64,000 nt of DNA from a virus. The position numbers were made by a program, and so were the translations under genes. The DNA lies in IMG/VR virus record IMGVR_UViG_3300035703_000011. One strand, written 5' to 3'. The notes under the pieces were generated by a model that did no database searches, had not been told where the DNA came from, and saw only the letters and a program-made list of their open reading frames with translations. Positions 8,748-46,479 of the stretch are shown piece after piece. Position 1 is the first letter of the stretch; each line of letters opens with the position of its first letter.

Positions 8748-11700
8748 CTATCCTCCTAATTGTAATTTATCTATTTTGGAAGAAAGTTCTTTAATTGCTT
8801 CAATTAATAATGGAACAAGTTTTTCATATTTTACAGTTAAGTAATTATTATCTGCTGGTGCAGGAGCAATTGCCTCTGGAAGAACAGATTGAACTTCTTG
8901 AGCAGAAACTCCAGAATGTCTTATGTCCATTTTAAATCCAAGACTTTCGCCAATTTCATTAAAGTTGTATGTAAATCCTCTAAGTGAACAAACTTTTTCT
9001 AGGGCATTATTAATAATTTCAATATTTGTTTTAAGTCTTTCATCAGAAGCAAATGCAGTGATATCATTTGAGACAAAAAGATTATTTGTGCTTGGGTTAT
9101 AATATATTCCTGCATCAGTATAAAGAATTTCATTTGCACTAGATGCATTGTTAGAATCAACAAATGTAAGGTAGTGATCAGCATTTGCAGATGGTAATGA
9201 TGGTACAGATCTTGTGGCAATAGTACCGGCAGAAGTGGCATTTCCACTAAAACTAGTTGCTGTTACTGTCCCAGAAACTGAAAGGCTTCTGTAAAAATCA
9301 ATTGTACTGTTATCAAAAGTTGCTATATCTACATGTCCTGACCCAGTATATCTTTGAATGTAAAATTTAGAAGCAGCACTAGAATTAAATCTAGCTGCAA
9401 TATTAGTGGCATCACCATACCACCCAACATTTATTCCATTTCCAATTTCAAATAGACCAACACCAGAAACTATTAATTTTCCAGTTAATTTAATGTCACC
9501 ATTTTGTCCAGCAGCTCCACCAACATCAAGAGCATATGATGCTGTTGTTGAAGCTTTGTTAATGCTCAATCCAGTAGTAGTAAATCTTAAATTATTATCT
9601 CCAGTAGCAATATTGCTGTCATTTTTAAAGATTACTTGATTAGATAATCCAGCAGTTAATCCTGGACCTTGAGGACCTATTTGACCTTGAGGACCTATTG
9701 GACCCTGAGGTCCTCTAACTCCTTGAGCACCTTGTGGACCTATTGGACCTTGTGGTCCTTGTGGACCTCTTAATGAATTTCCTTGTGGTCCTATGGCACC
9801 TTGAGGACCTCTATTTCCAGTTCTAACAAACTGCACATAAAGTTGGGATCCCTCATAAAAATACATTGTGCCAGTTCCGCCCAAATATTGAACATTGATA
9901 GTAGAGTAATCAGCAAATGTTTGATTATCGCTAATTACAGAATAAATTTCAGTATCTGATGGAGAAGTAGATATAATTAAGTAACCTCTTTGGGAGCTAT
10001 TTGTAGAATCATCAAATGTACTAATCCATTGTGAAACATTTCCACCAAGACTAGAAAAATTATGAATATAAATCTGATTTACTAGTGAAAAATCTAAAGA
10101 ATTAAAACGTATATGTGCATATTGTGGAATAGGAGTGGTAACAGAAGAATAGTTGTACAGAACACCTGTATCAATACCTCTAACCCCTTGGGCACCTTGG
10201 GCACCTGCAGCACCTTGGGCACCTGCAGCACCTTGGGCACCTGCAGCACCTTGAGGTCCTTGAATTCCTTGTGGTCCCCTTGGACCTGGAACTGTACTGG
10301 GATCTCCAGCAGGACCTTGAGCACCTTGAGGTCCTTGAAATCCTTGTGGACCTATTGGACCTTGAGGTCCTCCTCCTTGTGGACCTTGGAAACCTTGTGG
10401 ACCTCTTGGTCCTTGTGGACCAATATTTCCCTGAGGTCCTATAGATCCACCTGATCCTTGAGGTCCTAAAGGTCCTTGAGGTCCTATTGATCCTTGTGGA
10501 CCTCTTGGTCCTTGTGGTCCAATAATACCCTGTGGTCCAATTTGCCCTTGAGGTCCAATAATACCCTGTGGTCCAATAATACCCTGTGGTCCAATTCTTC
10601 CTTGTGGACCTTGTGGTCCCAATGTCCCTTGTGGACCCAATGATCCAATTCCACCTTGAGGTCCAATTCCACCTTGAGGTCCTAGTAAACCTTGAGATCC
10701 CTGAGGACCTCTTGGCCCCTGTGGACCTATTGGACCTCTAATATTACCAACATTGTCCCAATCTGTACCATTATATACCCAAAGGTCTCCTGTATCTTGA
10801 GCGATTACGCCGTCACCAGTAGAAGGAGGATACCAAGAAAATCCAGAATCATCTGCAGTTAATGTAGTATGCGGAGATGATGTGGTTACTGAAGAAACTG
10901 ATCCTACAATAGTGACTGATGTTCCTGCAGCTCCTTGAGCACCTTGAGGTCCAAAGGGACCTTGAGGACCTTGTGGTCCAATAATACCTTGAGGACCTCT
11001 AACACCTTGAGGTCCAATGAGACCTTGACTTCCTTGAGGTCCAATTAATCCTTGTGGACCTCTAGGACCTTGTGGACCTTGAAAACCTTGAGGTCCTTGA
11101 AAACCTTGAACACCTTGTGGACCCATAGGACCTTCAGTACCTTGTGGTCCTACAATACCAGGACCACCAGCTGGACCTTGTGGTCCTTGAAACCCTTGAG
11201 GGCCTCTTTGTCCCTGAGGACCTTGAGGACCTATTTGTCCTTGTGGTCCAATGATACCTTGAGGACCTATTTGTCCTTGAGGACCTATTTGTCCTTGAGG
11301 ACCTATTTGTCCTTGAGGACCTTGAGAACCTTGTGGACCTCTTGATCCTTGTGGTCCAATATTTCCCTGAAAACCTTGAGGTCCTCTGGCACCTTGAGAT
11401 CCCTGAGGTCCTGAAGGTCCTTGAGGTCCTTGTGGACCAATGATACCTTGAGGACCTATTTGTCCTTGTGGACCAATGATACCTTGTGGACCAATGATAC
11501 CTTGAGGACCTATTTGTCCTTGTGGGCCAATGATACCTTGTGGACCAATAATACCTTGTGGTCCTATTAGACCTTGAAAACCTTGAGGCCCTCTTACCCC
11601 CTGAGGACCTATTTGTCCTTGAGGACCTATTTGTCCTTGAGGACCTATTTGTCCTTGAGGACCTTGAACCCCCTGAGGTCCTTGTGGACCAGTTAATCCT

Positions 11701-13613
11701 TGAGATCCTTGAGGACCTTGGAAACCTTGAAATCCTTGAGGACCTTGAAATCCTTGAGGTCCTACTCTTCCTTGAAATCCTTGAGCACCTGGAACACCAG
11801 GATTTCCTGATGTTCCTTGCGGACCTTGAAATCCTTGTGGTCCTATTTGTCCTTGTGGACCAATAGAACCTTGAGAACCTGTACTTCCTTGTGGACCTAC
11901 ATTTCCTTGAGGTCCTTGAAAACCTTGAGGTCCTATATTTCCTTGAGCACCTTGTGGTCCAGATAGTCCTTGAGATCCTGCAGTTCCTTGGGGTCCTCTG
12001 ACTCCTTGATCACCTTGAGATCCTTGAGGACCTCTAACTCCTTGAGCACCTTGAGCACCTTGAGGTCCAATATTTCCTTGTGATCCTTGAGGTCCTATAG
12101 ATCCAGTTGTTCCTCCTATACCAGGACTACCCTGAAATCCCTGAGCACCTTGAGGTCCAATATTTCCTTGTGATCCTTGAGGACCTCTAATTCCTTGAGC
12201 ACCTTGAGCGCCTTGAGGACCTCTAACTCCTTGAGCACCTTGAGGACCTTGCAATCCTTGAGAACCTTGTGGTCCTATTGGACCTTTAATAGTTCCAACA
12301 TCATCCCAATTTGATCCATCATAAACCCAAAGATTTCCTGTGTCTTGAGCAATTACACCATCTCCTGTGGATGGTGGATACCAAGAAAAAATAGAATCAT
12401 CAGCAGTTAATGAAGTATGTGGTGCTGATGTAGTTACTGAAGGAACTGATCCTACAATAGTAACAGATGTTCCATCATCTCCCTTTGGCCCTTGAGGTCC
12501 AATAATACCTTGAGGTCCTTGAAATCCTTGAGATCCTTGAGGTCCTTGCAATCCTTGAGATCCTTGAGGTCCTATGTCACCCTGAGCACCTTGAGGTCCT
12601 GTTGATCCAGTTGCACCTCCTTCTCCAGGAACTCCTTGAGCACCTTGTGGACCTATTAACCCTTGGGACCCTTGTGGTCCTATTAATCCTTGGTCCCCCT
12701 TAGCACCTTGTGGTCCTTGGAGACCTTGGAATCCTTGGAATCCTTGAGTGCCTTGAGGTCCTTGAAAACCTTGAGCACCTTGAGGACCCTGAAATCCTTG
12801 TGGCCCTATTGAACCCTGTGGACCCTGGAATCCTTGTGGACCCTGGAATCCTTGTGGTCCTATTGGACCTTGTGGTCCTTGAAATCCTTGGAATCCTTGT
12901 GGTCCCTGAAATCCTTGAGGACCTTGTAACCCCTGAAATCCTTGAAATCCTTGTGGTCCTAGAGGTCCAGAGGCATAAGCCCAAGTAAAACCTAATCCTG
13001 GACCAAGAGATGTTAATACTTGGTATATTCCACCAGATAGTCCTTCCCTATTAACTAAATCTCCAGTAACCCTAACTGAGTTGGTATTAATATCTACTGG
13101 ATAATTTGGTTGAGTATTTCCTATACCAAGATATCTAGAGTTTGGATTAAAGACCAATGTAGTAGGAGAAATCTCAAATCTTTCAAGATCCTCTCCAGAT
13201 CTTTCGCTAGTAAATCCAATATACCTTATATTAGAATCTGTAGGTTCTTCTACTGGGATATCTAAAACTGTAATAGTAGCAATACCCAATCCTGGAGATA
13301 CTTGCCCTGTTGCTACTACTCTTTTTCCTACAAAGTTTAACTTAGTAATAGATCCAGCTACACCTACCAGATTACCTTCATCAAAAACTGTGATTCCTAA
13401 TTCTAATAGACCAGGGGGAACTGGAGTCCAATATCTAAGTTTATCTCCCCCAATTCCAATAAGAACATATTGTGCCCCAATTGGAATAATTGGACTATTG
13501 GCAGGATCTCCCAAACTAGGCTCAGCTTGATTTAACCCCAGAAAATCATATCTGTCTGAGGTTAATCTTGAAAAAGGAGTATTTATAACTCTTCTACTTA
13601 AATATTTTGCCAT
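8748..13613 (-). CDS. giant collagen-like tail fibre protein with C-terminal intramolecular chaperone (peptidase S74) domain
   Basis: 1,621 aa with four G-X-Y blocks ([10 protein letters not shown]...), two duplicated globular inserts and a third globular domain. The C-terminus [31 protein letters not shown]...[15 protein letters not shown]...[16 protein letters not shown] is typical of the S74 auto-cleaving chaperone (predicted S|D cut between 9045 and 9044). Confidence 0.9.
9660..12972 (-). repeat. collagen G-X-Y coding repeat region, interrupted at ~12288-12472, ~10738-10925 and ~9830-10172
   Basis: Gly codon every third position over ~850 codons by my coordinate estimate. Many near-identical 18-45 bp units occur, for example ggacctatttgtccttga repeated. 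Confidence 0.9.
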
Positions 13614-13614
13614 A

Positions 13615-13635
13615 ATTGGGTTCCACTATCCCCCT
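13615..13635 (-). promoter_or_regulatory. conserved 21-nt leader element AGGGGGATAGTGGAACCCAAT (copy 1)
   Basis: Identical 21-mer to the one at 18090-18110. It lies immediately 5' of the start codon of the 1,621-aa gene, downstream of a NATAAATA box. Confidence 0.6.
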
Positions 13636-13645
13636 TTAATAAGTA

Positions 13646-13653
13646 TATTTATC
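13646..13653 (-). promoter_or_regulatory. late promoter-like box (GATAAATA)
   Basis: Reverse complement of tatttatc, 32 nt upstream of the ATG at 13613. Confidence 0.45.
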
Positions 13654-14032
13654 ACTGATTTAATGTCTCTAAAATAGAAACTGTATATTTTAAATGATTA
13701 GGAACTGATGTAGAAATTCCAGAGAGTCTAATACTATCAGTCCTTAAAGCAGTTCTTTCCAAAACAAGTCTTCCATCTAAAAGAATTAGAGCATCATTAG
13801 GGGGAACTATTCCTCTATAAATTATCTCATTTAATGATGTAGAAACACCACTTTGTGATCTAGTCTCCCTTTGATGGTAAAAGGAAGCTGTTCCAATTCC
13901 AGTTCCAACATTAGCTACTTGAGCATAAAGAATAATACTAGTATATCCTGTCTTTGTTCTATAAATTTCCTCATTAGTGGTGCTTACCACTCCAGTTCTA
14001 GTAACATAGGTATTTAAAGGTTGCTGTGCCAT
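13652..14032 (-). CDS. hypothetical structural-module protein (126 aa)
   Basis: ORF lies between the two giant genes, with short gaps on both sides. Confidence 0.6.
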   Translation of the reverse strand: MAQQPLNTYVTRTGVVSTTNEEIYRTKTGYTSIILYAQVANVGTGIGTASFYHQRETRSQSGVSTSLNEIIYRGIVPPNDALILLDGRLVLERTALRTDSIRLSGISTSVPNHLKYTVSILETLNQ

Positions 14033-14038
14033 AATAGG

Positions 14039-17000
14039 TTATTGTTGTAGTGCAATAATTAATGGGGTTACTTCTGCCTGTAAACTCTTACTGAATGCCT
14101 GTCCAGTAATTGTTCCTGTATTTTGATTAATTGTTATTCCTTCACTAATTCTAAAGTCTCCACTTTGATCTGTGCTTGTAAATGGCACTTTACCTCCATT
14201 AGTTGCTATGATTTGATTATCATCAATTGGAACTGCTCCCTTTGATGGGATGGCATTTACAATATTTATACCAGTGCCCACATATTCAAAAGTTATACTA
14301 CTTGCAATTACTTTACTTGATTGGAAGAAGAATACAGTTGAACCTAGTCCTATAGGATAAGTTACAAATTCATCAAATGTAACTGTTGTATTTCCTGTTT
14401 CGTCCACTGGTGTTGATGAAACTGGATTGAAGAAATATTTTTCCATTACTGCAACAGCAGTTGCTTGAGTTCCTATTCCAGGGCCAATTTGTGGGGGAGC
14501 TGCTATTGAAACTATTGGAGCACTTGATCCATATCCAGTTCCAGAAACTAGAACATCTATTCCTAAAATAGTTCCTCCAATTCCAATATTTGATTCAAAA
14601 ATTGCAGATTCTGCTGGAATAAAAAAGTCTGAATTTGGGGGAAGATCTACAGTTACTTCAACTGCTGCTGTTGGATCATAACCAAACCCAGGGTTAGTAA
14701 TTTCAATTCTACTGATGAAATAATATTGTGAATCAATGACTGCAATTTGTCCATCATAAGGTCTTTGTCCTTTTGGCAATTCTAACTGTGGAATTGCCTG
14801 TGTTCCTATTCCCAAAATGCTAGTAATGATACCTGCTCTAGATCTAATGAAAGGATCTATCAATGCAGAAGTTGTCATTCCTGATACTTTGACCTGAGAA
14901 ACTGACCCAATTCCAGTCTGATAACTAGTTGGAATTGTAAGATTTCTCACTATGTAAGTAGAAATGCCTGCAATATATTCAATTGCAGAAATTTCCAAAT
15001 CTCTTACATAACCTGGAACAAGTGTGCCAGGAGGAGGACTGGTTTCTGGAAGATACGTTATAGACCCATTATCAGAATCTCTATATGCTGATCCAGCATA
15101 TATTGAATTTAAATTGCCTAAGGTTAAAATATCAGAACAAATTGCCTCTATAATTAATCCAGAATCTCTCTTGCACTTTTCTCTTCCATTAACTGAACCA
15201 CCATAATCAAAATATGTTGCTCCTGCCCCAAGAGGTCCACTAGTGCTTGTAACAAACCCAACAACTTCAGAAGCAATAAAATCTTTATTTGCTCTTAAAA
15301 TTGTAACAGAATCTTTAAATGCCTGTGATGCCCCTACTCCAACATTAATAGTCAGACTATCCACATTGTCTGTATTTGGTACAGATGTGATTGTTCCTGC
15401 ATACTGTAATGGTGTTGCACCATCTGCTACTAATCCATAATTACCAAAAGAAACATTAGAGTTATTGAGATCTGTTACACCACCACTTCTTGCAGATACA
15501 GCAGTATCACAACAAATTGTGAATAAAGAAACTAACTGACTATACCCAAAATTGGTAAGGGAAACACCAATTCCACCTTGATTATATTGAGTATATGCAT
15601 CAAGAACCATAGATTTAAATCCACCTGCTCTATCACCATCAATTCTCATTCCAATACTATCTGGAACAAAATTTGTACAGTTCTGAACATATGGGGATTG
15701 CCAATTTTCTTCAGTTCCATTTGCATATCCAAGCCCCCTGGTTGGGAATGAAACCATTGCACTTCCAGGATTACTTGGTCCAACAAAAGACATTTGAGCA
15801 ATATAACATCCTCTTCTTACATGAAAAAGATCAGTTTTATCTTTTGTTGTAACTAGTGTTCTCCTTAAATCTTCACCAATTACAGCAACTCTTTCTGGAA
15901 CTTGTATAGGACCATCCTCTACATAAAGACCTGCAAATACTTTAATGGTATCACCAGATTCTGCAACTGAACATGCCTTTTTAATTGTTAAAAATGCATC
16001 TCCAGGACCTGTCCCTCCATTAAAATCACTTCCAAGTTTATTGACAAACCATTCATTTCCAATCTTAGGTCCTGGTGGTTGCCATACAACTTGACCAGAT
16101 GGGTAGTTAACTTTTGGTGCTACTTGTGTGCCAATTCCAATGATGCTGGTAATAATTCCAACACAAGAATAAATTGCAGATACTACATTAGCACACGCAT
16201 TTGGATTAGTATTGAGTTCTCCATCAGGAAGTATTTCTAAGTCAAATAATTGAGTTATTGTGGAGAATCCAGCTTGATATGATATGGGAATTGGGGAATT
16301 ATTAACTACATATCTTGACAAGAAAGCAATGCTAGAAATACCTGCTACTGTTGCCCTCTTTACATAATCAGCAGGCATTGGAGGAACAATTGCTGGATTA
16401 GGATCTAAATGAGATAGTGTCCCATCAACATAATAAGATAATCCTGCTCCAACACTTCCAGAATTTCCTCCTCTAGAAATATCAAATGCAATTGCATCTA
16501 TAATTAATCCTATATCCCTCTTACACTTTACTCTTCCAATCTCAACTCCAACTGTACCATAATCAAATAAATCACTAAGATCATTTCCATCAATATTTCC
16601 AAAAGGTCCTGAACTGGATGTGATAAATCCTACTACTTCTTCTGCAATAAATTCTTTATTTCTTACTAATAAATTTGCAGCATCAATAAATCTTCCACTA
16701 ACCCCAAGAGCCTGAGATCCTAGTACAGAATATGCATATCCAACATTATTACCAGAATCAACAATTTCTCCTCTAATTCTAAGATCACCTGCAACATCTA
16801 ATGTTCTTGTTGGTAATGTTGTATTGATTCCAACAATTGGGTGAATGTTCTTTAAGAAACTACCTGTATTTGATGTTACTGAACTAATTCCAAAACTTTG
16901 GAATTTGGCTAAAGTTGCCCCAATTCCAACATCAAGGAGTGCTGTTGTTGTTATCCCAGTTACAAGTAAAGTTTTAATAGTTGATATGCCAACATATTCA

Positions 17001-18091
17001 TTGGTAATAGTTGCAAATCCAACAGATGCAATACCAATGGTAGAAATACCAACAATTTCCTCAACAATATTTGCAGTTAATATTGTAGATAATCCTACAA
17101 ATTCTGATGATATTGTAGCTATGCCTACTGTTGCAATTCCAACATAGGCATTACTGATTGATGCTATACCAATAGTAGAAATTCCAACAAACTCATTAGT
17201 AATTGTTGCAATTCCTACTGTTGCAATTCCAACATAGGCATTACTGATTGATGCTATACCAATAGTAGAAATTCCAACAAACTCATTAGTAATTGTTGCA
17301 ATTCCTATTTTAGCAAAAATTATATCTGCATAAAGGGTTGTTGAAATTCCTGTGAAAGATTCTGTAATTGTGGCAAATCCAATAGTAGAAATTCCTACCC
17401 ATGCCTCAGTGATCGAAGAAACCCCAATTGTACTGATACCAGTATAAGATCCAGTAATTGTGGCAAATCCTATAGTAGAAATCCCAATATAAGATTGAGA
17501 AATAGTAGCAAATCCTACTACTCTTATATCACCATTAACATCTACATGATACTCTGGAATTATAGTATTGACACCTACATATCCCAAGTTAGAGATTACT
17601 ACATCTTTCCCAGTTGAACTAGATCTTAAATGAAAATCTTGTTGAGCAAATAGAGTTCCTATCCCAACAAAACCAGAATTTCCTATTGATACAACTGCAG
17701 TAGAAGATCCAGATCCTACAAAATGAAATCTTTGTTGAGGATTTAATATACCAAATCCAACATCACCAGATGTAGTTATAGCTACAACTTTATACTGTTC
17801 ATAGTTAACTTGAAATCTTTGGTCTGGTCTGGTTGTTCCAATTCCAACCCTATCAGAAAATATAGCATTTCCACGTACATCAACTTGTTGTAGTGGACCT
17901 AATGTACCTACACCAATTCTATTATCTACTAAAAGATTGGACTCTGTTCTTATTTCTCCAACAACATCTAGTTGATATGTTCCTTCAGATTTTCCTATGG
18001 ATACTTTCTTAGATGAAGCATCTGCATATAATGCATCTGTTCCTACACCTAATCCAGTTTTAACTTTAAAAAATGTATCTTGTGAAGGCAT
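14039..18091 (-). CDS. giant structural/fibre protein (1,350 aa) with 15-aa repeats and a right-handed beta-helix-like module
   Basis: N-terminal VGIGT..P...L.V.G motifs and about 12 copies of a 15-aa repeat (GISTIGFATITxxYx). An internal duplication is present (NLLVRNKEFIAEEVVGF...KCKRDIGLIIDAI versus ILRANKDFIASEVVGF...KCKRDSGLIIEAI). FVNKLGSDFNGGTGPGDAFLTIKKACSVAESGDTIKVFAGLYVE is typical of pectate-lyase-fold N-caps. Confidence 0.85.
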   Translation of the reverse strand: MPSQDTFFKVKTGLGVGTDALYADASSKKVSIGKSEGTYQLDVVGEIRTESNLLVDNRIGVGTLGPLQQVDVRGNAIFSDRVGIGTTRPDQRFQVNYEQYKVVAITTSGDVGFGILNPQQRFHFVGSGSSTAVVSIGNSGFVGIGTLFAQQDFHLRSSSTGKDVVISNLGYVGVNTIIPEYHVDVNGDIRVVGFATISQSYIGISTIGFATITGSYTGISTIGVSSITEAWVGISTIGFATITESFTGISTTLYADIIFAKIGIATITNEFVGISTIGIASISNAYVGIATVGIATITNEFVGISTIGIASISNAYVGIATVGIATISSEFVGLSTILTANIVEEIVGISTIGIASVGFATITNEYVGISTIKTLLVTGITTTALLDVGIGATLAKFQSFGISSVTSNTGSFLKNIHPIVGINTTLPTRTLDVAGDLRIRGEIVDSGNNVGYAYSVLGSQALGVSGRFIDAANLLVRNKEFIAEEVVGFITSSSGPFGNIDGNDLSDLFDYGTVGVEIGRVKCKRDIGLIIDAIAFDISRGGNSGSVGAGLSYYVDGTLSHLDPNPAIVPPMPADYVKRATVAGISSIAFLSRYVVNNSPIPISYQAGFSTITQLFDLEILPDGELNTNPNACANVVSAIYSCVGIITSIIGIGTQVAPKVNYPSGQVVWQPPGPKIGNEWFVNKLGSDFNGGTGPGDAFLTIKKACSVAESGDTIKVFAGLYVEDGPIQVPERVAVIGEDLRRTLVTTKDKTDLFHVRRGCYIAQMSFVGPSNPGSAMVSFPTRGLGYANGTEENWQSPYVQNCTNFVPDSIGMRIDGDRAGGFKSMVLDAYTQYNQGGIGVSLTNFGYSQLVSLFTICCDTAVSARSGGVTDLNNSNVSFGNYGLVADGATPLQYAGTITSVPNTDNVDSLTINVGVGASQAFKDSVTILRANKDFIASEVVGFVTSTSGPLGAGATYFDYGGSVNGREKCKRDSGLIIEAICSDILTLGNLNSIYAGSAYRDSDNGSITYLPETSPPPGTLVPGYVRDLEISAIEYIAGISTYIVRNLTIPTSYQTGIGSVSQVKVSGMTTSALIDPFIRSRAGIITSILGIGTQAIPQLELPKGQRPYDGQIAVIDSQYYFISRIEITNPGFGYDPTAAVEVTVDLPPNSDFFIPAESAIFESNIGIGGTILGIDVLVSGTGYGSSAPIVSIAAPPQIGPGIGTQATAVAVMEKYFFNPVSSTPVDETGNTTVTFDEFVTYPIGLGSTVFFFQSSKVIASSITFEYVGTGINIVNAIPSKGAVPIDDNQIIATNGGKVPFTSTDQSGDFRISEGITINQNTGTITGQAFSKSLQAEVTPLIIALQQ
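16975..17520 (-). repeat. 45-bp (15-codon) tandem repeat region inside the 1,350-aa gene
   Basis: Protein repeats: GISTIGFATITGSYT / GISTIGVSSITEAWV / GISTIGIASISNAYV / GIATVGIATITNEFV and similar. Confidence 0.8.
17124..17303 (-). repeat. perfect 2 x 90-bp tandem duplication
   Basis: cctactgttgcaattccaacataggcattactgattgatgctataccaatagtagaaattccaacaaactcattagtaattgttgcaatt occurs at 17124-17213 and again at 17214-17303. Confidence 0.9.
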
Positions 18092-18110
18092 TGGGTTCCA
18101 CTATCCCCCT
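18090..18110 (-). promoter_or_regulatory. conserved 21-nt leader element AGGGGGATAGTGGAACCCAAT (copy 2)
   Basis: Identical to 13615-13635. Here the final AT overlaps the ATG of the 1,350-aa gene. Confidence 0.6.
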
Positions 18111-18121
18111 GTTTATAAGAT

Positions 18122-18129
18122 TATTTATG
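18122..18129 (-). promoter_or_regulatory. late promoter-like box (CATAAATA)
   Basis: Reverse complement of tatttatg, 30 nt upstream of the ATG at 18091. It overlaps the stop codon of the relic fibre-gene end. Confidence 0.45.
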
Positions 18130-18191
18130 AAACTCTCATAATAAAGGCAATTGCAAAGTGTGGGGGTCTATTTTCGTGGTAGTCACTTCCA
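18125..18191 (-). repeat. 67-bp direct repeat, copy A (relic of the 3' end of the 1,702-aa fibre gene)
   Basis: Aligns with 18920-18986 with about 7 mismatches. In the fibre frame it would read GSDYHENRPPHFAIAFIMRVS*, compared with GSDYHENRPPYYALAFIMRVS* in the intact gene. Confidence 0.85.
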
Positions 18192-18894
18192 TACCAACTA
18201 AAACATAAGACCACCTTAAATGATTTTTATCTTTATTTATTACAGGACTATGTAACAAATTTGCATCATATAAGGTCATAGTTCCATACTCAGAAGGACA
18301 TTCGCCAATTTTTTGTAAGTAAGAATCTCCTTCGTAATTATCATACATTTCATAACGATTTAAAAAACTTGAAGCATAGTTTTGATAGTCCTCATTACTA
18401 TAGAGACTTTCTTTGTACTTCCAAAAAGCAGTACCTCCATTAAATCCCTCACTTAACCAAATATTAGATGCAACAATAGTCTTAAGATTTGAAGTTAAAG
18501 ATATATCACTATGAGGTAATAATGAAGTTTTTTGAGTTGTTATTTTTCCATACTTAAACAGATTTCCATAATCATTAAAAATTAAATTTTCACACTCATA
18601 ATTTAAATTATTTTTGATAAACTCCTTTAAAAAATATTTAAGGTTTCTCAATTGAAAAGATGGAAGATTTTGTTTAAAGAAACAATTGTATCCATATTCA
18701 TCAGTAGGATTAAAAATAGGAGAAAGTTTAGCAACTTCAACAAATAAGGAAAAATTTTTAAATAGGTTTTTAACTATCCAATAACCACAACCATCACAAA
18801 TTTCATGATACTTAATATCGATTTCTGAAAATGAGTTTAGTTGAATAGATTCAATTAAAAGTTCTTGATTTATAAAAGTTAAATCATTTTTCAT
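18136..18894 (-). CDS. 2OG-Fe(II) oxygenase-like protein, same family as 47545 and 48132, on an inserted cassette
   Basis: LLPHSD...IWLSEGFNGGTAFW...TMTLYDANLLHSP...RWSYVLVG parallels HTD/HSD...YLTPDAP..GGT...LILYPGNLFHAS...RLFQTFFF in the tandem pair. The last ~19 codons are read from repeat copy A in a shifted frame. Confidence 0.6.
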   Translation of the reverse strand: MKNDLTFINQELLIESIQLNSFSEIDIKYHEICDGCGYWIVKNLFKNFSLFVEVAKLSPIFNPTDEYGYNCFFKQNLPSFQLRNLKYFLKEFIKNNLNYECENLIFNDYGNLFKYGKITTQKTSLLPHSDISLTSNLKTIVASNIWLSEGFNGGTAFWKYKESLYSNEDYQNYASSFLNRYEMYDNYEGDSYLQKIGECPSEYGTMTLYDANLLHSPVINKDKNHLRWSYVLVGMEVTTTKIDPHTLQLPLL

Positions 18895-18919
18895 TTTAAA
18901 ATTTCAATTTTTAAGTATT

Positions 18920-18986
18920 TTATGAAACTCTCATAATAAATGCAAGTGCATAATATGGAGGTCTATTTTCGTGGTAGTCACTTCCA
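18920..18986 (-). repeat. 67-bp direct repeat, copy B (authentic 3' end of the 1,702-aa gene)
   Basis: See 18125-18191. The two copies are spaced 795 bp apart and exactly bracket the 252-aa ORF. Confidence 0.85.
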
Positions 18987-21900
18987 CCACGATTTCCAGT
19001 ATTTGATGTACTATATGTTGCAGAAACGTAATTACTGTTTTGACCAGGATTCATAAACCAAACATTTACTGCCGTCTGTAAACTATGATTGTGTTCAGGC
19101 ATCTCACCAATCGTTAACTGATGAGCAGTTGATCCACCAATATCTCCAGGTTCATAATTTTCAGAAATTGCTCCAGTTTCAGCATTAAATCCAGGACCTG
19201 TTTGAGTTGTTATTCCAGTTTTTGATGTATCATAAGAACCGACAATAAATCTATTTCTCAAATCTGGAGTTGATTGCGATCCATCACAAAGTGCCCATCC
19301 TGTTGGGACAGTAGTTCCAGACCACATAATAATTCCCCCAACTGGGATAATGCCATTTCCCACAAAAGAAGTTGCTGTGGCAATACCAGTCACCACAACT
19401 CCAGATGAATTAGTATCAAATGCAGTGGAATTTATTTCTCCTGTTACATTACCAATTAAAGGTCCACTGAAGAAAGATGCAGTTGCAACACCAGTTACTC
19501 TAAGTTGAGTTACTGTAGTAATACCAGCAGTAACTTGACCAAGATTTGATAATGCTGTAGTTGAATCTAATGAATCATTAATAGTAAGAGAATTTACTGT
19601 CAGACTATCAAAGAAATTACTCTCTTCAGAGACTTCACTGACATTAATTTCCTCCCCTGTTGTAGCATCATATTTTTTACGTCCAATGAAGAATTCGCCA
19701 TTACTATTCATTCCAGTATAAACTACCAATCCACCATGTGTAGGTAATGATTGTGAAATTAAAATCTCATCATTAGAAAGAACTCTATCTTGATTGGTTG
19801 GCATTCCAGTTGAATAATTTCCTGGACCAAATCCAGTATATTCAAAAGTGTGCCCAGATGCTCTAAGAATAGAATTTCTTCTAAGTTCTATTGGACTTAC
19901 TTTAACTCTTCTTATTGCTGATCCATTAACATGAGATTTTGCTTTTGTGCCTAAAGCACCTCTAATAGTTCTTATTTGTGAACCAGCAACTCTAGTGACT
20001 AAAAGAATTTCATCATCAATCTGAATAAAATCTCCCTTATCTAAACCTACAGGAGAATTTACATTGAAAAAGGTATCTGTAGAATTTATGCCATCAGAAT
20101 CATTAATTCTTGCTTTAAATCCATCAAGAGCAAAGAACTGTCTGGTAGAAGTATTTTCGTTAATTGAATTTGTATCTTTAATTTGAGATGTCAATCCAGA
20201 ACTATAAACTAAAGAAGCACCAGATGCATTACCATCAACAACAAATACAGTAGGAGATGTAACAGAACTAACTGTAAATTTACCAGAAACTCCTAAGAAA
20301 GAAACTGTGTTACCTACAAGGAATGGATGAGGAGCACTTGATAAACATGTTACTGTAGTTTTATTTGTTCCTGAAGAGTATGATGCACTAGCAGTATATG
20401 CTTGAATTGGAATAATTATTGATCTTGATGGTGATTCAGTTTTTCCAGAAGAATTAGAATAAGTTAAAGTTTTTGATCCAGATACAGTAACTTGAAAAAT
20501 TCCATTATTTTCAGGATATACTGAACCAAGGACTTGAATTACAGTATCCCCCTCTGGTAAAAGTGATGAAATTGTCACATTTGCCTGAGTTGTTGATCCT
20601 GGCAATCCTCTAATAATTAAAGCATCATTGATTGAATAACCAGATCCAGGATTTGAAATTGATACTGCAGTAACATTACCACTAGAAGAAACTGTAACTA
20701 CTGCAGTTGCTCCTTCTCCAGTCACCCCACTTCCAGGACATAAAGGAACATCATAATAAATTCCTTGCACAAAACCACTACCATCTGAGGTAATGGTTAC
20801 TGTTCTAACTCCATTTAAATTGTGCCAATTGGAAGTGACTAATGTACAAGTGCTTGTTGATGGAGACTTTGTAATACTAGAAACTTCAAAAGCACCTGAA
20901 AAATCTTTAAGATAATTAATTGCAGTCTCTTTTGTTGTGCTTAATTTGGGATCACTGACATCAACTTTTCCAATAAGACTTCTTGATGCAGAAGATACTG
21001 TATTGTCTAAATCTGAAATTACATTATCAAGATCAGACTCTGGAATAATGTTATTTAAATTCTGGGAAAGTTTATAACTTTGAATATTAAAATTAGAATC
21101 TGTTGGAGTATTTTTAAACACATTCAAGTAAACATGATAAATTCCATCAGAAACATTCTGAGCATATTTTTGAATGGTATTTACTTTGTAAATCTGATAA
21201 TCATTATTAATTTGTTCACATGTGAAATATGGTAGATTATTTCTATTAGAACTTAAAATTGTATATGGGGGCACTCTTGTCTGACTACTACAGTTTCTTT
21301 GATCTAGCCAGCTGGTAACTGAAGATGAAGTGACTGTATTAATTGTTCCTGGATTTGAGTAAATTCTATATCTAAATTGAAGATCGTCTACAACCTCAGA
21401 AACTTCAAAACGTCCATTAAAACCTGTTCCAGTTCCTAGACCAACGGGAGCAGGTTCACTAGTACTCTTAAGATTATAAATGTTAACTTTATTTCCAACT
21501 CTTAAATTATGAGGATTTTTAGTTACAATATTTGCAGTAATGACAGATCCAGAGGTTGTTGTCCAAGCATCAATAATAATATTATTATTTCTGACTAATT
21601 TAAATTTATTAGTGTCTACGCTATCATTCAAATCTACATCATCAGGTTGTGATAGAATAAAATCAAGAGGAGTAGAAGATTTTTGAATTACAAATCCTGA
21701 GGTTGGATCAGATGCATTTGATGCCTCTTTAGGTATTACTATTCTTGCCCTATAAACCTTATCATCAGAAGTTCTAGTATCTATAATTCTGCGAATATTA
21801 AAAGTTGGAGAAGAAAGCCCAGATAAATTATCAATAAATGATGAATTAGAACTAATTTGAAGATACCAATTTAAATTAGTAGAATCCCATTGTATAGGAT

Positions 21901-24028
21901 TTCCTTCATTATCAGGTAAAGAATCAGAAACCCTACTCACAAGCTTTAAATTATCCTCTACTTCAATTCCAATATCATTAATAATGTTAACAATATCAGT
22001 CCCATCAATGGTACTGGATAATTTTATGGTATTTGATGCTGGATTACTTTCTGGGTGAATGTAATATATTTTTTGTGGATCAAGTCCATCTGGGAGAACT
22101 GCATTGTTTGCAATGACTCTAACTGCTTGACCAGTTGAAATTCCAGTAACTGTCCCTTCTAAAATTAAAATATCTTGAGCAGAATTAATACTTTCTATAT
22201 TATAAGAAGTCTCATAATTTGGATTAATAGTTGCTGATATTACTCCAGAAGGAGATCCTAAAAATATTTGATCACCAGACTTTCCCCCAATGGTATATCC
22301 TCTAATTTTAGATTTTGGAGGATCAAATTCATCATCAAATCCTTTCAGATAAATTCTAGTATTATTTGGAGAATATGATGTTCTTAATGATGTTGTTAAT
22401 TCAACATCTATGTTATAACATACTATGTCACTAGTTTCAGATGAAACTTCTTTTGGAGGGATAATATGAGTTATAAATCCATGATTATCTTTACTGAGCT
22501 CATAGTCTTTAAACCCTCTAGAAACTAAAGAAATTGCCCCAAAATTACTGTTAGAGTTGGTAATACTTTGATCACCACCAGAATCTGCCACAAATTGCTT
22601 TGCATATCCAATGGCAAATATAGAAACACATTGAATAAAGGCATCATTAGATGCTTTTATATGAAAACTCTCCCAATCTGGTTTATAGATTGAACTAGAA
22701 TCTTGATGTAGACTTGTAGATGATCCTAAGTCTTCTTGAGATACATAACCACCACTTACTGAGTCATATTTTAAGAAAGCCCTATCATCTCTTTGAAGTG
22801 AAATTCCAGTAAATTGAGCAGTGACCATACTCTTAAATCCAGTCACCTTTGATCCATCTGCATGAAGTCCATTCATTCCATAAACAGACTTCAAACTACA
22901 ATTAAAAATATAAGGTGAGCTAGATGTAATTGTATCAGATAGAACAGTAACTTCAGCATTAGTTAGTGTTGGATCTGCAAGAATTGGTGCTGTAGGAAGT
23001 AAATATGTAAATTGAGTTGAATTTATTACTTGAGCAACAACAAAATTTCCATTGAATTGTTGACTTCCAGTAAGAGAATTGAGAGCTAATCCTGTAATTT
23101 GAATAGGTGTAAATGGAGTTAAATTATGAGCAGTGCTTGTAGTTACTGTTACTGTAGTTGTTGCTGTTGCTCCATCTCCAGAAATTGCATCAGTAATTTC
23201 AACTGGACCTTGACCAAGATCTCCTACTATTTTATTTTCTTCAGTATTAGGTTGGAAACTATCAAACCCATTTATAATATCTCTTCCAGAAAAAGATCCA
23301 TATGCTAAACTGAGCTTATAGTAATAAATTTCTAAGTCAGTTTTTGTATAAGTGATCCCATTTTTGGTATACTTATTTTTATTATCTACATATTCAAAAG
23401 CAGTTAATTTGTGATGAGAATATACTGGATTTACTGTACTTTCTGAGTAAGTATTATATACTCTACCTACAGGATCTCCATCAAAAATAGTAAATCCATA
23501 AATGTAAGATCCCCCAGTCAATCTAAAAATAGATGTTCTTTGAATATTTGGATTTGCAGGATCTGGAACAAATTTTGGTCTTATCTTTGTCTTTCTTAAA
23601 TCTGTTGCTACTAGTGATACACCTTTTGGAATAATTACTCCACCATCAGCACTATTGTAAATATAAAGTTCATTATTAGATTCACTTAAATTAAAATTAG
23701 AATTTACACTAAACTGTGTAATAGTTCTGGATGCCCCAGTAGCATCTAAAAGTTGAGTTCCATCATAATAATATCCAGGTCTATTATCAACATAGTGAGT
23801 TCCTGGGGAAATTAAAATGGTAGTTTGATCAAACAAATCATTATTTGATCCTGGAACATATGAAAAATTTGCTGCTTCTATTAATGCTCTTTGAATAGTT
23901 TTAAATGGTCTAGTTCTAGAATTCCCTCTATTTTCTATAGAATCACTAGAATCTAACTCATTAGGATCTACATAAAGAGTATTACCATTCAAATTTTTCA
24001 GAAAATTTTCTAATCTAGCTAAAGGCAT
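18920..24028 (-). CDS. giant tail fibre / receptor-binding-type protein (1,702 aa) with beta-helix N-cap and C-terminal phage tail collar domain
   Basis: N-terminus LYVDPNELDSSDSIENRGNSRTRPFKTIQRALIEA. GxGY repeats are present (NPGSGYSINDA). The C-terminus GGIIMWSGTTVPTGWALCDGS...PDLRNRFIVGS...GGSTAHQLTIGEMPEHNH...NRPPYYALAFIMR is the collar-domain pattern. Confidence 0.85.
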   Translation of the reverse strand: MPLARLENFLKNLNGNTLYVDPNELDSSDSIENRGNSRTRPFKTIQRALIEAANFSYVPGSNNDLFDQTTILISPGTHYVDNRPGYYYDGTQLLDATGASRTITQFSVNSNFNLSESNNELYIYNSADGGVIIPKGVSLVATDLRKTKIRPKFVPDPANPNIQRTSIFRLTGGSYIYGFTIFDGDPVGRVYNTYSESTVNPVYSHHKLTAFEYVDNKNKYTKNGITYTKTDLEIYYYKLSLAYGSFSGRDIINGFDSFQPNTEENKIVGDLGQGPVEITDAISGDGATATTTVTVTTSTAHNLTPFTPIQITGLALNSLTGSQQFNGNFVVAQVINSTQFTYLLPTAPILADPTLTNAEVTVLSDTITSSSPYIFNCSLKSVYGMNGLHADGSKVTGFKSMVTAQFTGISLQRDDRAFLKYDSVSGGYVSQEDLGSSTSLHQDSSSIYKPDWESFHIKASNDAFIQCVSIFAIGYAKQFVADSGGDQSITNSNSNFGAISLVSRGFKDYELSKDNHGFITHIIPPKEVSSETSDIVCYNIDVELTTSLRTSYSPNNTRIYLKGFDDEFDPPKSKIRGYTIGGKSGDQIFLGSPSGVISATINPNYETSYNIESINSAQDILILEGTVTGISTGQAVRVIANNAVLPDGLDPQKIYYIHPESNPASNTIKLSSTIDGTDIVNIINDIGIEVEDNLKLVSRVSDSLPDNEGNPIQWDSTNLNWYLQISSNSSFIDNLSGLSSPTFNIRRIIDTRTSDDKVYRARIVIPKEASNASDPTSGFVIQKSSTPLDFILSQPDDVDLNDSVDTNKFKLVRNNNIIIDAWTTTSGSVITANIVTKNPHNLRVGNKVNIYNLKSTSEPAPVGLGTGTGFNGRFEVSEVVDDLQFRYRIYSNPGTINTVTSSSVTSWLDQRNCSSQTRVPPYTILSSNRNNLPYFTCEQINNDYQIYKVNTIQKYAQNVSDGIYHVYLNVFKNTPTDSNFNIQSYKLSQNLNNIIPESDLDNVISDLDNTVSSASRSLIGKVDVSDPKLSTTKETAINYLKDFSGAFEVSSITKSPSTSTCTLVTSNWHNLNGVRTVTITSDGSGFVQGIYYDVPLCPGSGVTGEGATAVVTVSSSGNVTAVSISNPGSGYSINDALIIRGLPGSTTQANVTISSLLPEGDTVIQVLGSVYPENNGIFQVTVSGSKTLTYSNSSGKTESPSRSIIIPIQAYTASASYSSGTNKTTVTCLSSAPHPFLVGNTVSFLGVSGKFTVSSVTSPTVFVVDGNASGASLVYSSGLTSQIKDTNSINENTSTRQFFALDGFKARINDSDGINSTDTFFNVNSPVGLDKGDFIQIDDEILLVTRVAGSQIRTIRGALGTKAKSHVNGSAIRRVKVSPIELRRNSILRASGHTFEYTGFGPGNYSTGMPTNQDRVLSNDEILISQSLPTHGGLVVYTGMNSNGEFFIGRKKYDATTGEEINVSEVSEESNFFDSLTVNSLTINDSLDSTTALSNLGQVTAGITTVTQLRVTGVATASFFSGPLIGNVTGEINSTAFDTNSSGVVVTGIATATSFVGNGIIPVGGIIMWSGTTVPTGWALCDGSQSTPDLRNRFIVGSYDTSKTGITTQTGPGFNAETGAISENYEPGDIGGSTAHQLTIGEMPEHNHSLQTAVNVWFMNPGQNSNYVSATYSTSNTGNRGGSDYHENRPPYYALAFIMRVS

Positions 24029-25214: not shown

Positions 25215-25922
25215 TCAAGAGCAGCAGTCTGCAAGTTTAGTGGACAGTTCATGAACTGTCTCCTTCAATGAATTGATTTGATTTTGTTGATCTTTGATTG
25301 CCTCTATTAATATTGCTGTTAGGTTTCCATATTCAACTGTCTTTAAGGTTTGATTTTCAATAACTTCTTCTACTATAACTTCAGGCAAAACTTTTTCAAC
25401 TTCTTGTGCTATCAATCCTATAGATTTTTTTTGTTTGGATGCTCTTTGAGAAACAACCTCAGGATTCCACTCAAAATAAACTCCTTGAAGTTTTAATACC
25501 TTATTCAAAGAATCATCTAGTTTCTCTACATTTATTTTTGCTCTTTCATCAGATGGGCAAGGAGCACAAATAGATGATCCATTGTACTTCCAAAACCCAT
25601 TCAAATCTCCATCTGGAGAATTGAAGTTAACTGTAATTGCAGAACTATCATAAAATGGTTGTGAATCATCATGTCCCCCAACAAAAACACCATGACCAAT
25701 ACCATTGTAAACTCCCAATTCATTCCAAACACCAAGACCATTATATAATCCAATTTGATTTTGCATTCCCTCACCTTGATGAATGCCAAAATTATGAATT
25801 GAAAATGGTTTTGAAGGATCTAAACTTTGTTCAAATGTAGCAGAAGAAATTGGAGGGACAATTCCTGCACCAACATGTAATTCTCCAGCATAAATTGATG
25901 TATGATTTGACATTATACCCAT
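25215..25922 (-). CDS. small spike/fibre-tip-like protein carrying a peptidase S74 intramolecular chaperone domain
   Basis: CPSDERAKINVEKLDDSLNKVLKLQGVYFEW...IGLIAQEVEKVLPEVI...VEYGNLTAILIEAIKDQ. The predicted S|D cut lies between 25550 and 25549. An alternative start is at 25913 (TAATG coupling). Confidence 0.75.
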   Translation of the reverse strand: MGIMSNHTSIYAGELHVGAGIVPPISSATFEQSLDPSKPFSIHNFGIHQGEGMQNQIGLYNGLGVWNELGVYNGIGHGVFVGGHDDSQPFYDSSAITVNFNSPDGDLNGFWKYNGSSICAPCPSDERAKINVEKLDDSLNKVLKLQGVYFEWNPEVVSQRASKQKKSIGLIAQEVEKVLPEVIVEEVIENQTLKTVEYGNLTAILIEAIKDQQNQINSLKETVHELSTKLADCCS

Positions 25923-45404: not shown

Positions 45405-46479
45405 GTTTAAACTTATTCATTGCAGACTCAATGACAACATGCATATCCATGTACTTGTACTCAGCTAATCTACCACCAAAAATAAAATTAGTCAATGGTT
45501 TAGTTTTCTCTAAGTATTTTTTGTATATCTTTTGATTATCATCACTGTTTATTGGATAGTATGGAATTAATCCCTTTACATAATTTTGAGAATATTCATG
45601 AGTAATCACTGTTTTATTTGAATTAGTTCCTTCAAAATGTTTGTGCTCTATGCACCTCATCATCTTATGCTCTTTATCGCAGTAATTGACTACAGCATTT
45701 CCTTGCCAATTCTTCATATCTATTGTGTGGTTCACAAAATGTAAAGACCTATAATTTAGTTCTCCATATTCATAATCAAAAAATTCATCTATACACCCAG
45801 TGAATACTATTTTTCTTGCCAAGGAGTTAAAATAGTTTCTATTTGAAAAATAATTAGTTTGTAATTGTATATCAACCCCATCCAACATTTTTTCAAACAT
45901 TTTAGTATATCCCCCAACAGGAATACCTTGATATAAATCATTGAAATAATTATTGTCAAAAGTAAATCTCAGTGGCAATCTTTTGATAATAAAAGGTGGT
46001 AATTCTTTAGGACTTTTCCCCCACTGCTTTTCTGTATAATTTTTAATTAACAAATTGTAGATGTCTTCTCCAACTAAAGATAAAGATTGTTCCTCTAAAT
46101 TAGAAGGTGTTCCTTTATATCTTTGCTTATCTATTATTGCCTTAGCTTCATGTGGATATTTAACCCCCCATATTTCATAAAATGTATTCATGTTAAAGGG
46201 AAGTGAATACATTTTCCCCCCAGATATTGCCTTAGGCGAATTAATATAATTATTAAATCTAGAAAATCTATTCACAAAATCCCATACAACTTTATTACTA
46301 GTATGAAAAATATGAGCTCCATATTTGTGTACATTAATACCTTCTATATTTTCAGTATAACAATTTCCTGCTATGTGATCTCTAGAATCTAAAATCAAAC
46401 AAGACTTTCCAGAATCAGTAGCAAGTCTCGCAAAAGATGTGCCAAATAAACCACATCCTATAATTAGATAATCATACAT
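45394..46479 (-). CDS. glf: UDP-galactopyranose mutase
   Basis: YDYLIIGCGLFG (FAD fold), GAHIFHT, FNMNTF, YTEKQWG, YEYGELNYRS, EY...YYP and GRLAEYKYMDMH motifs. Confidence 0.9.
   Translation of the reverse strand: MYDYLIIGCGLFGTSFARLATDSGKSCLILDSRDHIAGNCYTENIEGINVHKYGAHIFHTSNKVVWDFVNRFSRFNNYINSPKAISGGKMYSLPFNMNTFYEIWGVKYPHEAKAIIDKQRYKGTPSNLEEQSLSLVGEDIYNLLIKNYTEKQWGKSPKELPPFIIKRLPLRFTFDNNYFNDLYQGIPVGGYTKMFEKMLDGVDIQLQTNYFSNRNYFNSLARKIVFTGCIDEFFDYEYGELNYRSLHFVNHTIDMKNWQGNAVVNYCDKEHKMMRCIEHKHFEGTNSNKTVITHEYSQNYVKGLIPYYPINSDDNQKIYKKYLEKTKPLTNFIFGGRLAEYKYMDMHVVIESAMNKFKHES

Follow-up and report, generated by a model that had tools for sequence, protein, structure and literature searches.

Why does a small enzyme-like gene stand inside the fibre module of a virus, enclosed by two copies of the same fibre-gene end? 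The question is raised by a 64,000-nt stretch of the IMG/VR virus record IMGVR_UViG_3300035703_000011, called here the window, to which all coordinates refer unless another locus is named. The gene in question, the cassette gene, encodes a 252-aa protein of the family DUF6445 that resembles 2-oxoglutarate (2OG)-Fe(II) oxygenases. It lies between two giant fibre genes, A and B, and all genes of the locus are on the minus strand. The last 67 nt of fibre gene A (copy A) recur at the other end of the cassette gene (copy B). Copy B is best explained, with a probability of roughly 0.78, as a non-functional recombination scar: it would be the surviving 3' end of a collar-type fibre gene that once stood directly upstream of the promoter and leader of fibre gene B. 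The features of the locus are as follows.

18920–24028, minus strand: fibre gene A, encoding a 1702-aa tail fibre that ends in a tail-collar domain (list of open reading frames (ORFs), phrog_529, phrog_1800, PF07484).
18920–19474, minus strand: collar-type C-terminal domain of fibre A, 555 bp, between the conserved motifs GGIIMWSG and PPYYALAFIMRVS.
18920–18986, minus strand: repeat copy A, the 3' end of fibre gene A, encoding GSDYHENRPPYYALAFIMRVS and the stop (alignment, translation).
18895–18919, minus strand: 25-nt spacer from the fibre stop to the DUF6445 ATG, reading ATAAAATA, without ATAAATA (sequence).
18136–18894, minus strand: cassette gene, 252-aa DUF6445 protein, 2OG-Fe(II)-oxygenase-like (PF20043, phrog_1644, H128xD130/H215/R227xS229).
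18125–18191, minus strand: repeat copy B, probable orphan relic of a collar-type fibre-gene 3' end (alignment, repeat search).
18136–18192, minus strand: relic-encoded C-terminal tail of the DUF6445 protein, residues 235–252, MEVTTTKIDPHTLQLPLL, and TGA (translation, comparison with homologues).
18122–18129, minus strand: CATAAATA, T4-type late-promoter-like box overlapping the relic TAA at 18125–18127 (sequence, conservation).
18090–18109, minus strand: leader GGGGGATAGTGGAACCCAAT, running into the ATG of fibre gene B (conserved in 22 IMG/VR stretches).
14039–18091, minus strand: fibre gene B, 1350 aa, starting MPSQDTFFK (phrog_17885, tail fiber, 1.2e-117).

An earlier note on this DNA, made from the letters and an ORF list, had claimed that the 67-bp end of fibre gene A recurs at 18125–18191 at a spacing of 795 with about 7 mismatches. 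The recurrence is borne out by the MAFFT alignment, the repeat search and the shuffles. The repeat search pairs 18124–18191 with 18919–18986 (68 nt, 91% identity, spacing 795), and MAFFT recovers the same block. Within the 67 nt (18125–18191 versus 18920–18986), 61/67 positions are identical, so that the two segments are clearly similar and the mismatches are six rather than about seven. The two copies share an exact 26-nt core, GGAAGTGACTACCACGAAAATAGACC, which does not occur elsewhere in the window; two matches of it were reached in 0/100 shuffles, and the exact 26-mer has 0 matches in IMG/VR. Fibre ends of the same subtype from different phages are 78–85% identical. Since the 91% between the two copies is barely above this range, a duplication of one sequence is not required to explain them.

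In the fibre frame, copy A corresponds to the last 21 residues of fibre A. Copy B can still be read in the same frame as GSDYHENRPPHFAIAFIMRVS and stop, as the earlier note had stated, although this frame is open for only 21 codons upstream. The 252-aa ORF starts 25 nt past the copy A stop, runs into copy B at the second base of the Met235 codon and is terminated by a TGA within this copy. Its passage through the relic in a shifted frame, also described before, thus provides its last 18 residues. Copy B is then followed by the CATAAATA box and the GGGGGATAGTGGAACCCAAT leader of the next giant gene, as described. The identical arrangement is present in an independent Logan assembly (L001; L numbers denote the compared loci), and a diverged copy of the oxygenase-relic junction is present in JGI (L005) and ENA (L006) contigs (samples JGI 3300010354 and ENA ERZ27275033). 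The repeat arrangement is not an assembly artefact. A search of JGI metagenomes with the junction 20-mer gave no contig beyond the one already known.

The C-terminal tail is foreign to the protein family. Four homologues (P0002–P0005, 56–72% identity) stop four residues past ...VLVGM, and the alignment and the HMMER scan agree with the earlier expectation that the native C-terminus lies near ...VLVG. An exhaustive HMMER search among 1.84 billion representatives gave 23 related clusters, none of which matches beyond query residue 238. Residues 239–252 are found solely in the window protein and its 97% relative P0001. Between these two proteins the tail differs at 4/18 residues (22%) and the rest at 4/234 (1.7%). 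The tail is modelled as disordered, with pLDDT 30–36. The cassette gene itself is strongly purifying-selected: against L005, its nonsynonymous divergence (dN) is 0.007 and its synonymous divergence (dS) 0.152, giving a dN/dS of ~0.05. The relic is 86.6% identical between the window and L005, and this divergence of 13.4% equals the neutral rate given by the dS of 0.152 in the adjacent gene. From these rates, the relic appears to have drifted neutrally while the DUF6445 gene was kept under purifying selection. An independently conserved tail, which would have spoken for a tail native to the enzyme, is not what is observed, as the tail changes at the neutral rate and is absent from the other homologues.

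The sequence downstream of copy B is that expected downstream of an intact fibre gene. The leader (20 nt) is exact in 22 IMG/VR stretches (L012–L033) from many metagenomes, in any upstream context, and is also found at 13614–13651 ahead of a 1621-aa gene. In all related loci, an invariant ATAAATA box precedes the leader by 10–14 nt. For T4 late promoters the consensus is TATAAATA, with the box at about -10 of the late transcript. In the window, ATAAATA is seen 20 times on the coding strand versus 3 times on the other, and each of the three giant genes has it at -37 to -40. The CATAAATA box is 30 nt upstream of the fibre B ATG, with the A of ATAAATA at -37; box and leader after the relic would serve fibre gene B.

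The empty site predicted in the earlier note, fibre stop-CATAAATA-leader-ATG, exists in nine related viral contigs, including the 95% relative L022. Seen in L013, L017, L021, L022, L024, L028 and L029, such sites read fibre end-TAAATAA-leader-ATG without the cassette. Their fibre ends are ...PPYYALAFIMR(V/T)x and stop, with the TAA inside the ATAAATA box. In the variant empty site of L018, the fibre stop is TGA and the ATAAATA box lies a few bases beyond it. The TAA stop of the fibre end, and likewise of the relic, is therefore embedded in the ATAAATA box of the next gene. Because of this overlap, a gene inserted after a collar-type fibre gene would destroy either that gene or the next one, unless the fibre end is present a second time. 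This accounts for the presence of a second fibre end at the locus.

The closest relative, L022 (IMGVR_UViG_3300044681_000823), shows what was exchanged. It is 95.7% identical to the window over 25370–19475 and 95.05% identical over 18173–13709, where homology resumes inside the relic. Between these matching regions the window holds ~1300 bp, consisting of the 555-bp collar domain, the spacer, the DUF6445 gene and ~18 nt of the relic. In L022 their place is taken by ~527 bp of another collar subtype (...GSSGTNANLPPYYALAFIMRVS and stop); the cassette is lacking, and fibre A is directly followed by fibre B. The breakpoints at ~19474 and ~18174 indicate that the exchanged unit is the fibre tip together with the oxygenase gene. 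The left limit of this block is near the conserved GGIIMWSG motif, and the right limit is inside the conserved fibre end. According to a domain alignment of 11 fibre ends, GGIIMWSG and PPYYALAFIMRVS bound the collar C-terminal domain.

The right junction can be read to the base. The closest native oxygenase 3' end, that of L007, is GGTATGGATATTATTACATAA (GGT ATG GAT ATT ATT ACA TAA). The fibre reads GGTGGAAGTGACTACC (GGT GGA AGT GAC TAC), and the fusion in the window reads GGTATGGAAGTGACTACC (GGT ATG GAA GTG ACT ACC). These three sequences point to a crossover inside a TGGA microhomology. It can be proposed that a block of collar C-terminal domain, short spacer and DUF6445 gene was joined to a resident fibre-end site. 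The left side would have been formed by homologous exchange within fibre sequence. The right side would be an illegitimate join at TGGA, connecting the oxygenase 3' end (GGT ATG GAx) to the resident fibre gene 67 bp ahead of its stop (GGT GGA AGT). Such a join would have removed about four of the enzyme's own last codons and its stop. With its own stop lost, the ORF continues in a shifted frame across the relic, ends at a chance TGA and is 13 residues longer. The relic would have drifted neutrally afterward. Since it resembles every collar-type fibre end, it could also be used as a homology patch, and a 97% relative indeed has the same junction with a different downstream module.

That relative is represented by L005 and L006, which carry the identical oxygenase-relic junction GGTATGGAAGTGACTACC. 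Between the window and L005, the C-terminal domain is 78.6% identical, copy A 89.6%, the DUF6445 gene 96.9% and the relic 86.6%. The 25-nt spacer is identical at 25/25 positions despite the neutral divergence of ~0.15. No homology was found between the window and L005 on either side of the shared segments, and the fibre body upstream of the collar domain in L005 and L006 is unrelated to that of the window. Past the relic stop, a hairpin + TATAAT + AAGGAG element replaces the late promoter and the leader. Elements of the hairpin + TATAAT type follow intact collar-type fibre ends in L035, L036, L045–47 and L055–56, and one is also found past the native-end oxygenase gene in L007. The relic is always contiguous with a usual post-fibre context, and the downstream module differs; the module was thus probably swapped at the relic after the junction had formed. 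This comparison shows the relic in the probable role of homology patch for the exchange of downstream modules.

The elements just mentioned resemble PeSLs and are intergenic, at L005 1494–1600, L006 1223–1320 and L007 1161–1255. They consist of a hairpin (GTGCCAC...GTGGCAC or CCAGTT...ACTGG), TTGACA-N17-TATAAT, and AAGGAG or ACGGAA. The PeSL-like element of L005 and L007 is absent from the window. The collar domain common to the window (19341–18987) and L005 (267–630) is itself mosaic: its first ~85 codons have a dS of 0.4–2 and the next 30 codons (...HNHSLQTAVNVWFMNPGQNSNYVSATYSTS) a dS of 0.05. This jump suggests a further breakpoint inside the domain.

A more distant lineage, L002–L004 (56% protein identity; L002 lineage, ENA ERZ28594217), contains a collar fibre end of the same subtype, a 15-nt spacer and an oxygenase gene with an end of native length. 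The oxygenase gene is followed by a TATAAATA box, then a 51-aa ORF and then a further giant gene, which is collagen-like. L002 has the fibre-DUF6445 junction without a clear relic. Because the junction is shared at this distance, the left junction must be much older than the right one, and the gene was not newly dropped between the two copies. No relic is present after the native-end homologues of L007, L008 and L010. Among 103 fibre-end motifs in 113 loci, orphan relics are seen only in the lineages of the window and L005. As a separate observation, a segment of L002 (10690–10735) that comprises the last three oxygenase codons, their stop and the TATAAATA region behind it can be aligned to the 3' part of the window relic and the promoter (TGAAAATGCC-TTCTTA--AGAGTCATATAAATA versus TGCAATTGCCTTTATTATGAGAGTTTCATAAATA; shuffle p 0.005, uncorrected over 24 comparisons).

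The earlier note had proposed that the cassette was inserted by recombination across homologous fibre ends. Parts of this idea survive: copy B as a fibre-end relic, the empty site and the non-native tail. The moved unit needs to be redrawn, as in comparison with L022 it is not the cassette alone, but the whole 555-bp collar C-terminal domain, the spacer and the DUF6445 gene. Neither junction has the proposed character. The right one is apparently an illegitimate join at TGGA and not a homologous crossover, and the left one is ancient, being shared with L002 at 56% identity.

Several observations weigh against the scar interpretation or complicate it. The six mismatches between copies A and B are clustered within the middle 19 nt (P=0.004), while the 5' 27 nt (18960–18986 and 18165–18191) are identical in both copies and variable among other phages. 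At three sites, copy A agrees with copy B and differs from L005_A and L002_A. The clustering suggests a history beyond one event or gene conversion between the copies, for which the hints are tenuous. L022 is more than an empty site, as its whole C-terminal domain is of another subtype. The direction of the event cannot be polarised between the two genomes, and either of them could be the derived one. For CATAAATA, we infer the late-promoter role from the T4 consensus and its conservation. The contigs of L005 and L006 are 1.4–1.7 kb long, and the alternative downstream module is partly seen in them. L002 may contain an older, shortened relic.

The same scar could also result from a deletion. 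The ancestral order would have been fibre A, the DUF6445 gene with its native end, a third collar-type fibre gene, the promoter and leader, and fibre B; a deletion reaching from the oxygenase 3' end to 67 bp ahead of the third fibre stop would remove that gene and leave its 3' end, with nothing imported. The TGGA microhomology serves a deletion equally. The order of events would fit, as the fibre-DUF6445 junction predates the relic junction, and in L002–L004 the oxygenase homologue is followed by a 51-aa ORF and then by another giant gene. However, none of the relatives found carries an intact third fibre gene here, and L022 passes from fibre A directly to fibre B. The end of the downstream gene of L002 lies off the contig, so that its 3' end is not available for comparison. 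The replacement of a block including the C-terminal domain, as seen against L022, is not explained by a pure deletion, and this history is unlikely. A different alternative gives copy B a function, either as a useful C-terminal extension of the oxygenase or as a frameshifted fibre-like peptide (...YHENRPPHFAIAFIMRVS) by which the enzyme would be directed to the fibre or virion. In both lineages the relic is indeed free of stops in the fibre frame, the five amino-acid differences between them are conservative (Y/H, Y/F, L/I, M/I, S/L), 4/9 nucleotide changes are synonymous in this frame, and the out-of-frame stop is at the same place, TGA in the window and TAA in L005. Yet 4/9 is indistinguishable from neutrality, and the relic diverges by 13.4% as expected from the adjacent-gene dS of 0.152, next to a gene with a dN/dS of ~0.05. 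The tail is changed at 22% of its residues versus 1.7% elsewhere, is absent from the other homologues and is predicted to be disordered at a pLDDT of 30–36. The fibre frame is closed 21 codons before the fibre-end motif (9 before the repeat), and no slippery site is evident. A function of copy B is therefore very improbable.

Direct repeats around a single accessory ORF, whose close homologues are located in unrelated contexts (L007, L008, L009), recall a mobile or homing element with a target-site duplication. No transposase, integrase or homing endonuclease was found in or next to the cassette among the neighbouring ORFs and Pfam matches. A length of 67 bp far exceeds known target-site duplications, the copies are just 91% identical, and one repeat boundary falls inside the cassette ORF. 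A false repeat made by a chimeric assembly is opposed by the same junction in three independent assemblies (Logan, JGI, ENA). A mobile element or a chimera can practically be dismissed. A target-site duplication of a transposon or insertion sequence was also rejected in the comparison with known elements (67 nt, 91% identity, boundary inside the ORF, no transposase or nuclease domain nearby). The scar remains the preferred explanation of copy B.

It can be speculated that the collar-type tip and the DUF6445 gene form a co-transferred host-range module, in analogy to gp37-gp38, in which the enzyme would be co-transcribed late with the fibre and would post-translationally modify, for example hydroxylate, the fibre tip or the neighbouring collagen-like fibres. 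This is improbable. The adjacency recurs in two lineages 56% apart, and the DUF6445 gene, which is without its own promoter box and purifying-selected, is swapped together with the C-terminal domain. Against the module, 79 other collar-type fibre ends lack DUF6445, and the nearest homologues are away from fibre genes. A general linkage of DUF6445 to collar-type fibre tips was rejected, as 0/79 IMG/VR fibre ends have a homologue within 3.5 kb downstream.

The assignment of the cassette protein can be stated with care. It matches the Pfam family DUF6445 (PF20043) at 35.2 bits, above the gathering cut-off of 24 (E=1.6e-8, profile positions 5–208 of 224), as well as phrog_1644. H128, D130 and H215, which correspond to the iron-binding facial triad HxD/E...H of the superfamily, are invariant in 10 sequences including the distant paralogues and a homologue from S-ShM2. 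R227 and S229 (RxS) are invariant in six close homologues and unaligned in the two window paralogues. In Fe(II)/2OG-dependent oxygenases, the basic residue of RxS, ~10 residues past the distal His, binds the 2OG C5 carboxylate. Solved members of the superfamily have a double-stranded beta-helix fold. The AF2 model of the cassette protein is moderate (pLDDT 64.6, pTM 0.68); an earlier one from a 6-sequence alignment was unusable (pLDDT 46.5). The top 50 Foldseek matches in PDB are all Fe/2OG oxygenases (OGFOD1, KanJ, PtlH, EctD, proline hydroxylases), at weak scores (best E 0.02, TM <=0.44). An hhalign comparison with 2OG-FeII_Oxy_5 is not significant (probability 3%), though the motifs are in register, and sequence and sequence-profile searches of PDB with the cassette protein gave nothing. 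From motifs and model, the label "2OG-oxygenase-like" seems reasonable. The hydroxylase-type enzyme of the earlier note is not shown, as only the HxD...H...RxS motif and weak Fe/2OG fold matches were obtained.

The window contains two further members of the family:

47545–48698, minus strand: a tandem pair of distant DUF6445 paralogues, 196 aa (47545–48135) and 188 aa (48132–48698) long (Pfam, phrog_1644).

They match DUF6445 with E values of 3.8e-11 and 1.2e-13 (43.8 and 51.9 bits), and both match phrog_1644. Their kinship with the cassette protein, suspected before, is right at the level of the family, but they are distant paralogues sharing 14–20% identity with it. At this identity, the cassette gene is neither a recent copy of the tandem ORFs nor derived from them. 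A GT2 glycosyltransferase/TPR protein gene (46472–47548) directly adjoins the tandem pair, and 46472–48698 may be a protein- or glycan-modification cluster.

Word-indexed protein searches returned 5–6 homologues of the cassette protein. Looking for further loci of the cassette gene by protein in IMG/VR and JGI metagenome contigs gave nothing, a DUF6445 homologue is present at 0/101 IMG/VR loci, and a literature search found no mention of DUF6445. Homologues with 62–72% identity are in unrelated contexts, beside small ORFs in L007 and beside a HAD/PNKP gene in L008 and L009. No ATAAATA is present within 70 nt upstream of the DUF6445 ORF. The DUF6445/phrog_1644 homologues in S-ShM2 (L011, NC_015281.1, 36954–37670) and S-RIM44 are annotated as "minor coat protein". 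The S-ShM2 homologue sits among three 2OG-FeII_Oxy_5 genes, and, judged by its sequence family, this annotation looks unsupported.

The locus resembles several known systems in part. In T-even and T4-type phages, segments of fibres and adhesins are reportedly swapped by recombination between conserved motifs, as is said to have been described by Tetart and colleagues (1998, J Mol Biol) and Trojet and colleagues (2011). The likeness lies in a variable receptor-binding segment between short conserved coding motifs, here GGIIMWSG and PPYYALAFIMRVS, and in near-identical phages, here the window and L022, that differ by exactly that segment. Unlike these swaps, the block here carries an extra, unrelated enzyme-like gene, one of its junctions is apparently illegitimate and left an orphan out-of-frame fibre end, and the right homology patch includes the stop, the putative late promoter and the leader of the next gene. 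In the T4 gp37-gp38 type of module, a fibre gene is followed by a downstream assembly or adhesin gene. Similarly, the DUF6445 gene is a small gene 15–25 nt past the fibre gene, lacks its own promoter box and is swapped with the fibre C-terminal domain, an arrangement found in two lineages (window/L005 and L002). In contrast to gp38, the cassette protein resembles no known fibre chaperone or adhesin in sequence or fold, such a gene is missing after 79 other collar-type ends, and the closest homologues (62–72%) are in non-fibre contexts.

Modular shuffling mediated by repeats is known from PeSLs (Arbiol et al. 2010, PMC2839356; Comeau et al. 2014, PMC4122927), whose repeat unit is an intergenic sigma-70-like promoter with a stem-loop terminator (Arbiol 2010, PMC2839356). 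As with PeSLs, short repeats enclose a non-essential ORF that some close relatives have and others lack (the cassette is absent in L022), and these repeats are substrates for recombination. A PeSL-style hairpin with TTGACA-N17-TATAAT follows collar-type fibre ends in related contigs and the relic in L005 and L006. The window repeats differ in being derived from coding sequence, the fibre 3' end, rather than from intergenic promoter-terminator units, and a scan of 17800–19200 for sigma-70 promoters and terminators revealed no promoter-like excess and no terminator. For these two reasons the window repeat is not a PeSL. Marine cyanomyoviruses carry multiple genes of the 2OG-Fe(II) oxygenase superfamily (Sullivan et al. 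2010, PMC3037559), and the window with its three DUF6445 genes agrees with this. The cassette copy departs from the usual pattern by lying in the fibre module and not in the accessory-gene cluster, and by matching DUF6445 only and no named 2OG-FeII_Oxy Pfam family.

The locus is an ordinary but unusually clear footprint of the phage gene shuffling that remodels host-recognition genes. It represents no new mechanism or kind of element, as mosaic fibres, cyanomyovirus 2OG oxygenases and repeat-mediated shuffling are all established. Its value lies in being a well-resolved natural case of the rebuilding of a host-range locus: both breakpoints are mapped against a 95% relative, the junction is read to the base, and the scar is datable against the synonymous clock of the adjacent gene. 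The stop placed in the promoter box suggests a structural constraint, and the scar it leaves could later act as a portable homology arm. The part with the higher potential, if true, would be an oxygenase-like enzyme acting on fibre proteins.

The wider gene content places the window among T4-like cyanomyoviruses, as a gp5-like hub, a gp48-like tube cap and psbA are present. Megablast of 17000–20500 against 50,697 phage records gave no match, and megablast of 26000–50000 gave a single match, S-SKS1, at 73.5% over 1.1 kb. There is thus no close sequenced isolate. Fibre A matches phrog_529 (tail fiber, E=0) and, at residues 1539–1700, phrog_1800 (tail collar fiber protein, 4.8e-21); its Pfam Collar (PF07484) score of 24.0 bits is exactly at the gathering cut-off of 24. 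Annotated tail collar or fibre proteins were matched by tblastn in 128 phage records.

Other repeats and small genes are found around the fibre genes. Six repeat copies at 45-nt spacing are located at 17082–17426, inside the 1350-aa fibre gene, and relatives align variably across this stretch. Between the two giant fibre genes at 14039–18091 and 8748–13613, a 126-aa ORF (13652–14032) matches phrog_1276, which has no assigned function; its 3' end, the ATAAATA box and the leader are kept in L013, L017, L020, L023, L025, L028 and L031. The 1621-aa protein encoded at 8748–13613 has ~20 matches to collagen triple-helix repeats and a C-terminal Peptidase_S74 domain, an intramolecular chaperone. Peptidase_S74 is also seen on a 235-aa ORF at 25215–25922. 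Long runs of collagen-type repeats with a 9-nt period occupy positions 1–340.

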